Assembly: GCA_902489795.1 (NCBI GenBank)
Contig: CABUBU010000001.1
Coordinates: forward strand, 41,956-105,955
Direction: 5' to 3'
Origin: an uncultured Azospirillum sp.
Lineage (GTDB): Bacteria > Pseudomonadota > Alphaproteobacteria > RF32 > CAG-239
Length of the DNA: 64,000 bases
The number at the start of each line of letters is the position of its first letter. The stretch's first letter is position 1. Shown piece by piece: positions 35,405 through 35,597 of this stretch. The notes under the pieces are model-generated. The model ran no database searches. It was not told the origin of the DNA and worked only from the letters and a program-made list of their open reading frames with translations. Both the position numbers and the translations under genes were made by a program.

Positions 35405-35560
35405 GGGGGATCAACATAGATGTCCCCCAGTAAACTGGGGGCTCTATATTAGCTGCAACCCTGACGATTTGATCACCTTCATTGGCATGGAGCAGTGTCT
35501 AACGGCACTAAAACATTCAACCGCCATTAAAATGGGGGTAGTTTGTAAAGCATCAAGACA
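35405..35560. repeat. structured repeat element, copy A (candidate sRNA)
   Basis: About 80% identical to 49832-49972. Hairpins ccccag-taaa-ctgggg and agtgtc-taac-ggcact, plus a conserved ttaaaatggggg...gtaaagcatcaa block. Confidence 0.55.
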
Positions 35561-35565
35561 TGAAT

Positions 35566-35597
35566 AACCCCGGAATTATCCGGGGTTATTCGTTTTT
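35566..35597 (+). terminator. intrinsic terminator immediately 3' of repeat copy A
   Basis: Hairpin aaccccgg-aattat-ccggggtt followed by attcgttttt. Confidence 0.6.

Follow-up and report, generated by a model that had tools for sequence, protein, structure and literature searches.

We identified two gene-less repeat copies in the window (the whole stretch of DNA analysed here, 64,000 nt long), both on the minus strand: copy A at 35415-35555 (each boundary uncertain by about 5 nt) and copy B at 49821-49965. Judged from sequence comparison, the two are very probably non-autonomous miniature (PATE/MITE) derivatives of an IS200/IS605-family IS, and a third related segment on the same strand, copy C at 27585-28150, is a decayed full-length relative. 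A first-pass annotation had taken the repeat for a candidate sRNA or an island-boundary element. The comparisons reported here do not support its interpretation as an sRNA gene, and the correction keeps a mobile-element fossil out of lists of sRNA candidates with covariation support. In the literature searched, we found no description of such a PATE-like family in uncultured human-gut alphaproteobacteria.

The repeat as first described is real. A repeat search in the window aligned 35443-35560 with 49853-49970 over 118 nt, without gaps, at 79% identity and in direct orientation, the two copies lying 14.4 kb apart as stated earlier; a 30-mer on the 3′ side (TTAAAATGGGGGTNGTNTGTAAAGCATCAA) occurs exactly twice in the window, once in each copy, with none expected from shuffles. 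A covariance model made from eight type-1 copies (see below) found copy A at 35413-35560 (151.6 bits) and copy B at 49818-49970 (141.4 bits), both on the plus strand as the model was oriented. The hairpins quoted for the two copies, with their compensatory changes, are also present when the sequence is read directly: the first hairpin is CCCCAG/CUGGGG in copy A and CUCCGG/CCGGGG in copy B (an A-U pair replaced by G-C), and the outer pair of the GUGUC/GRCAC hairpin changes from a-u to g-c. The reported partial copy at 28081 held up in part; its similarity to copies A and B is real over the last ~50 nt, and the segment in fact forms the left terminus of a ~565-bp IS200-like element that has decayed.

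Homologues of the repeat fall into two groups: type 1 resembles copies A and B over the whole 145-150 nt, and type 2 (including copy C) shares just the last ~50 nt. The key step in relating the two was that the covariance model gave an additional, incomplete match in L015, a contig from a related gut MAG, lying 450 nt upstream of the type-2 unit there. This contig carries, in order, the type-1 “5′ hairpin” end (AATAGATATCCCCCAGTAAACTGGGGG...), ~500 nt with an ORF, and the shared “3′ block”, the repeat ends bracketing a unit of ~560 bp. The sole ORF of this unit encodes 142 aa on the strand opposite to the orientation used in the first-pass annotation. It matches Pfam Y1_Tnp (PF01797; E = 2e-31), the NCBIfam equivalog NF033573 “IS200/IS605 family transposase” (122 bits against a cutoff of 55), and the solved structures of the IS608 and ISDra2 TnpA proteins (PDB 2a6m, 2vjv, and 2xm3); by these matches it is an IS200/IS605 Y1/HUH transposase. 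Because the ends in L015 bracket a transposase ORF, the 3′ block and the first hairpin, as originally read, are the reverse complements of the left end (LE) and the right end (RE) of the element, respectively. The top (tnpA-sense) strand of copies A and B is thus the minus strand of the window.

Ten contigs carry an intact close relative, whose TnpA (P0002) is 93% identical. The ends of these ten elements are identical, while their surroundings comprise five different left flanks and five different right flanks, and the element boundaries are therefore sharp: ...T-run TTATT|GCAAGCTTTGCTGAAAACCCCCAGTTTACTGGGGGTTGAAAG... on the left and ...AACCCCCAGTTTACTGGGGGATATCTATT| on the right. There are no terminal inverted repeats, the termini (GCTTTACAG... 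and ...ATATCTATT) not being inverted repeats of each other. Instead, both ends contain near-identical hairpins, CCCCCA-TTTTAA-TGGGGG in the LE and CCCCCA-GTTTAC-TGGGGG, followed by ATATCTATT, in the RE. The elements of L015 and L058-L067 have the RE hairpin and ATATCTATT as in the miniature copies, and an identical or homologous LE, placed around the 142-aa ORF; in a global alignment, similarity between miniature and full-length elements covers the ~50 nt at the start and the 35-45 nt at the end of the latter. The full-length relatives have tnpA only and no tnpB. A sigma-70 scan of the full-length element flagged nothing (TTGAAT-17-TATAAA upstream of tnpA fails the T-at-position-6 rule).

The same parts can be located in copy A, all assigned to the minus strand and listed here by ascending coordinate. 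The RE subterminal hairpin lies at 35424-35441 (CCCCCAGTTTACTGGGGG on the minus strand, then ACATCTAT at the element end) and is identical to that of the intact elements in L015 and L058-L067. It is followed by the conserved middle at 35446-35515, with short hairpins at 35456-35471 and 35494-35509, and by the LE subterminal hairpin at 35521-35538 (CCGCCA-TTAAAA-TGGGGG on the plus strand), which has one stem mismatch and matches the full-length elements. Beside the left end, a junction motif at 35552-35560 (TGTCTTGAT on the minus strand) is a candidate target/cleavage motif (TAM). Copy B, which the covariance model places in the same orientation as copy A, has a degenerate right end (CCCCCGGTTTACCGGAGT, with AACAGACAA at its terminus) and no adjacent terminator on its left-end side. 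Copy C aligns with the elements in L011 and L015; its left end, at 28095-28150, is matched weakly by the covariance model, and its right end, at ~27585-27620, is degenerate. Between them lies a tnpA pseudogene (27645-28088, minus strand), in which ATG has become ATA and which contains in-frame stops and frameshifts: tblastn with the L015 TnpA aligned residues 96-132 to 27677-27787 in frame -1 (78% identity, E = 2e-15) and residues 10-101 to 27754-28062 in frame -2, with stop codons. No intact tnpA is found in the window.

Across the family, the miniature architecture consists of an LE of ~52 nt, a conserved middle of ~60 nt, and an RE of ~35 nt, giving units of 141-153 nt with no ORF; the internal junctions are all alike in the 11 complete miniature copies. 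The neighbours of these copies are unrelated (ParC, MerR/GDYXXLXY, GtrA, HD/L15, Fic/LemA, Elm1/methyltransferase, and others), and no synteny of copies between genomes was found. Units with no transposase gene that occur in multiple unrelated contexts are what characterises a PATE or MITE. ORFs of equal length (743 aa) beside copy B and beside the copy in L017 were considered as a shared context and rejected, the two proteins being unrelated. A pattern scan with the conserved 3′ block recovered true homologues only in human-gut “uncultured Azospirillum sp.” MAGs (UMGS149, MGYG-HGUT-03845) and in one “Pseudomonadota bacterium” MAG. The same kind of scan returned nothing beyond duplicates of those MAG copies in metagenomes and no match in viral contigs, and BLAST against plasmids also gave no match. 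BLAST against a phage collection found three copies, on faecal contigs labelled “UNVERIFIED Bacteriophage sp.”, which are probably bacterial. The window itself looks alphaproteobacterial, with an rpsB leader match and TadA homologues that NCBI names “Alphaproteobacteria bacterium”.

Comparison of orthologous loci points to past mobility of both copies. The spacer between the TadA and thioredoxin-like genes, which holds copy A, is 355 nt long here, 197 nt in the sister lineage L073 (whose TadA is 97% identical), and 0-16 nt in species at 86-87% identity. In L073 both flanks and the orthologous terminator (AAAAACCCCGTACATACGGGGTTTTT) are kept and the element is missing; copy A is also absent from L074-L079. 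The order of the TadA and thioredoxin-like genes is conserved in sister lineages, so copy A does not lie on a boundary between core and accessory DNA. The earlier placement of the copies at such junctions therefore fits copy B only, which adjoins a strain-variable segment: L048 and L054 encode the identical HydA yet lack copy B, and the whole downstream segment differs from the HydA terminator on. Copy B, judged by these alignments, is part of that variable segment. The L073 site has diverged over 15-19 nt around the junction, and TTGAT is present on both sides of copy A. Flank pairs of 11 miniature and five full-length elements gave no consistent direct repeat, and there was no clean filled/empty pair among them.

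Every copy has a conserved motif at the left junction. It is TGTnTTGAT in all nine copies of subfamily i (the subfamily of copies A and B), whereas subfamily ii and the P0002 elements have TTATT(A), equally far from the hairpin; the left cleavage site may lie either after TTGAT or after TGTnT (TGTCT in copy A). A hairpin with a T-run stands immediately upstream of the element in about 16 of 20 elements, with a sequence that differs from copy to copy, and folding is more stable on the left side of the elements than on the right (mean -11.8 vs -5.1 kcal/mol, p = 0.007, in flank windows that clipped some of the terminators). Terminator-like sequences have been found to be strongly over-represented just upstream of ISs, most of all for IS200/IS605 (PMC13548323), and the flank pattern observed here agrees with this enrichment; the gut alphaproteobacterial copies provide concrete cases of it. 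The strong hairpin and T-run reported after copy A are indeed there, at 35562-35597 (a 13-bp stem, then the T-run). They lie outside the element, and since L073 keeps the orthologous terminator without the element, they are host DNA, a bidirectional intrinsic terminator shared by the TadA and thioredoxin-like genes, which converge here, rather than part of the repeat as had been proposed. What looked like the repeat's “own terminator” would be a consequence of IS200-type landing sites directly after host terminators. Elements of this family are expected to have their top strand on the lagging-strand template. GC skew on the plus strand is negative throughout the window, with the top strand of all three copies on the G-rich strand; over 10 loci, the sign of the relation between orientation and skew is mixed.

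By analogy with characterised members of the family (PMC7290912, PMC10055086, PMC3119063), a full-length element would provide a TnpA (Y1/HUH) in trans; this enzyme would bind both hairpins on the single-stranded top strand and excise the miniature element as a single-stranded circle, which would then re-insert just 3′ of a T-rich motif (TGTnTTGAT or TTATT) without target duplication (PMC10055086, PMC7290912). Terminator T-tracts would supply the insertion motif, which would bring copies to lie between convergent genes and abutting terminators. Insertions at such places would be harmless and shielded from read-through, and would persist. The compensatory changes in the stems would reflect the upkeep of DNA hairpins recognised by the transposase. 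Copies A and B look old, because they are only 79% identical, the LE stem of copy A has a C·C mismatch, and the RE of copy B is degenerate; they may no longer be mobile.

Compared with shuffles, the plus strand of copies A and B folds with z = -4.8 and -4.2, respectively, and for copy A the opposite (minus) strand is no less stable (z = -5.6), which DNA palindromes would lead one to expect. That the hairpins persist in further copies was confirmed over 12 aligned copies, in which 93.5% of the cells of five helices are paired (slid controls, 34-52%) and five pairs have changed on both sides, although the alignment was fitted to the model and this support is somewhat overstated. Helix 1 (the RE hairpin) is paired in 92.6% of cells over the 12 copies, helices 1 and 5 standing at 93-94%; in helix 5 (the LE hairpin), five to six copies differ at both bases of two pairs, and helix 4 (in the middle) has C-G to U-A changes on both sides in four copies. 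The LE and RE hairpins are alike, as would follow if each were the binding site for one half of a TnpA dimer (PMC7290912). Conservation of the end stems is no argument for an RNA, because the transposon model predicts the same for single-stranded DNA.

The middle segment is the part that an IS origin leaves least accounted for. Its ~60 nt form three 6-bp hairpins and have a column identity of 85%, against 79-80% for the ends, which is more conservation than expected of passive stuffer. The middle showed no homology when aligned with the tnpA of two full-length variants, and a chimeric TnpA-plus-tail protein query for its parent returned short spurious ORFs and nothing else. Other IS200 variants (P0024 and the truncated TnpA of L011) continue through an RE-like hairpin and have …QSQLTMDFAPFT… at their end, and a derivation of the middle from the 3′ end of tnpA is plausible on the sequence. 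It is very unlikely, in our estimate, that the middle is a functional module in its own right, either as a structured RNA (guide-like or regulatory) that dozens of copies scattered beside terminators would produce, or as a DNA fold through which the deletion derivative would outdo its parent as a transposition substrate.

The structure and its compensatory changes, the better-than-shuffled folding of both copies on the plus strand, and the hairpin and T-run that follow most copies on that strand are also what a family of independently transcribed regulatory sRNAs (~150-170 nt, several hairpins, and an intrinsic terminator downstream) would show, and there is a precedent in the Salmonella IS200 ends, which yield art200 and an RNA derived from the tnpA 5′UTR (PMC4513863, PMC5435999). 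We consider an sRNA family distinctly unlikely all the same. The ~170-nt transcript with its own terminator proposed in the first-pass annotation would have the ends of an IS200/IS605 element: its 5′ boundary is a transposon right end, with unrelated sequence directly beyond, and its terminator is a different one at every copy. The Rfam search suggested at that stage gave no known family, neither for the whole window at gathering thresholds nor for both copies at E <= 10 (terminator-driven noise only), and no sigma-70-like promoter site lies beside copy A or B. Copies in other genomes are non-syntenic, and the locus is empty in the sister species. The equally stable fold of the copy A minus strand, finally, is the behaviour of a DNA palindrome. 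An RNA on the opposite strand is the basis of another explanation, in which a PATE is retained because its middle and RE, transcribed on the minus strand into the flank, serve as an omega-RNA scaffold for a TnpB or IscB encoded elsewhere. The middle and RE (~97 nt) do form an unbroken series of four conserved hairpins, the last of which stops precisely at the RE boundary, the middle is conserved above the ends, and PATEs “often encode omega RNAs” that act in trans (PMC10055086). However, the full-length relatives here are of the IS200 type, with tnpA and without tnpB, and the miniature element retains a -35-like TTGAAT without a -10 partner. The scaffold of an omega-RNA usually extends over the tnpB 3′ end; no long protein among 5.8 or 1.84 billion sequences ends in a frame that crosses the segment. 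We regard an omega-RNA as very improbable.

The direct orientation of copies A and B, and the position of copy B ~35 nt from the point at which strains with identical HydA diverge, would suit a repeat that marks or mediates the gain and loss of DNA, as an island boundary, attachment site, or recombination substrate. Yet the 14.4 kb between the two copies consists of core genes (kinase, phosphatase, and hydrogenase) in conserved order, and contigs without copy B still have copy A together with the genes between (L001 and L048 belong to a single scaffold). No integrase adjoins either copy, 79% identity makes a poor substrate for homologous recombination, and the element occurs singly at many unrelated loci. 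These observations make a boundary or recombination role extremely improbable, and leave miniature IS200/IS605 derivatives as our preferred explanation of copies A and B.

As such derivatives, copies A and B are closest to the PATEs, which were first named in Haloquadratum walsbyi (PMC3119063) and have been described in Halanaerobium (PMC7290912) and Geobacillus (PMC10055086). Like these, the gut elements are ~150 nt long with no ORF, and what they retain of a resident IS200/IS605 element is its two ends with the subterminal hairpins. They occur in multiple copies between genes, and TnpA acting in trans presumably mobilises them. They differ in their hosts, which are uncultured human-gut alphaproteobacteria labelled “Azospirillum sp.”; in their parent, which is of the IS200 type (tnpA only), whereas archaeal PATEs derive from the IS1341/tnpB type; and in their conserved three-hairpin middle. 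The characterised autonomous members of the family are IS200 (Salmonella), IS1541 (Yersinia), IS608 (Helicobacter), and ISDra2 (Deinococcus). The TnpA of the full-length relatives found here is an IS200 equivalog and matches the IS608 and ISDra2 structures; further common traits are similar hairpins at both ends without terminal inverted repeats, a short conserved motif 5′ of the LE, and the association of the LE with a terminator (PMC4513863, PMC13548323). Copies A and B, unlike those elements, have no tnpA, and the terminator hairpin of Salmonella IS200 is inside its LE, whereas here it is owned by the host and differs at each copy. The target motif of ISDra2 is TTGAT. The RNAs from the IS200 left end, art200 (STnc490) and the tnpA 5′UTR sRNA, offer a partial parallel, the plus strand of the first-pass annotation being antisense to the LE as art200 is; unlike art200, the repeat has no sequence or Rfam similarity to it and no promoter-like site. 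For an antisense RNA from a miniature element, hardly any of the tnpA mRNA would be available for pairing, the retained LE being upstream of the likely tnpA start. REP/BIME sequences with their RAYTs resemble the family in being intergenic palindromes, often near gene ends, on which a Y1/HUH relative of the IS200 TnpA acts, but REPs are ~35 nt long and occur in clusters, and the unit here is ~148 nt. A RAYT identity for the transposase was itself considered and rejected (the RAYT model gives 29 bits, below its cutoff of 80, and the IS200 model 122 bits, above its cutoff of 55).

The elements have also left a trace in protein databases, since gene callers repeatedly read through the translated element frame …TPLHANERGQTVRFVAxIEPPVYRGISI. 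No TnpA or TnpB protein carrying this read-through tail turned up in the protein searches. A word-indexed protein search gave 34 clusters of read-through ORFs of 46-86 aa. The N- and C-terminal extensions of the ORFs from this and the following search differ, and the ORFs therefore represent different insertion sites. When one read-through ORF served as query in an exhaustive HMMER search, 47 clusters came up at E <= 0.001, and at least 45 of these are ORFs of this type (46-129 aa), that is, spurious “protein” clusters in public databases that are read-throughs of the element.

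The miniature, gene-less IS200/IS605-type element lies in two different settings in the window. Copy A (35415-35555) is surrounded by a conserved gene block (34302-39326), which is common to the sister species represented by contigs L073-L079 (TadA identity 86-97%) and encodes an M20 peptidase, an SH3-domain protein, a TadA-like ATPase, a thioredoxin-like protein, a VWA protein, a PP2C phosphatase and a Ser/Thr kinase. Copy B is in a strain-variable segment that begins directly past the HydA terminator (about 49787-51510 in the window; 4270-6000 in L048 and L054, two contigs with identical HydA). 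Two versions of this segment are found among identical-HydA contigs: one has copy B and a 406/408-aa ORF (50284-51510, minus strand) without a Pfam match, and the other has unrelated 95-aa and 418-aa ORFs in place of the copy B segment.

Contig L071 (10016-10188) and proteins P0121, P0127, P0154, and P0276 show that some miniature copies contain short internal tandem duplications and that a single ORF spans two neighbouring copies; for example, the helix-4 region, a stem in the conserved middle, is duplicated (24 nt) in the L071 copy. A third unit type, with the same left end and a different interior, was found in L010 (1972-2096), and this contig stops about 90 nt into the unit. L015, a related gut MAG contig, is short too and contains one element of this family; both contigs are consistent with MAG assemblies being broken by these repeats. 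We also identified hybrid or truncated tnpA genes (L011, 5131-5466, reverse strand; protein P0024), in which the C-terminus changes over to “…NQLKEDAEQSQLTMDFAPFTSSK”, resembling the classical IS200 TnpA tail; this switch suggests that different IS200 variants recombined in these genomes.

At least 45 clusters of predicted 46-129-aa “proteins” in public databases (P0121-P0154 and P0275-P0301) are read-throughs of miniature elements, whose ORFs carry …ALQKTPSLLGAECQGVGTTPLHANERGQTVRFVAVIEPPVYWGISI…. These “proteins” are an annotation artefact of metagenome and MAG gene calling, NCBI records included. Copies are also present in three GenBank records from human faeces titled “UNVERIFIED: Bacteriophage sp.” (MT839539, MT838190, and MT835812; L044, L045, and L046, respectively), where they adjoin ordinary-looking intergenic terminators; these records are probably bacterial contigs.

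Elsewhere in the window, Rfam model RF01815 identifies an rpsB leader/sRNA at 24434-24545 on the forward strand, with 51 bits where the gathering score is 40. This RNA precedes rpsB-tsf, the region with the EF-Ts ORF (25485-26411), and is consistent with an alphaproteobacterial origin of the window. The sole tRNA, tRNA-Arg(CCT) (30993-31069, reverse strand), sits within a lower-GC stretch (28-32 kb, GC 0.48).
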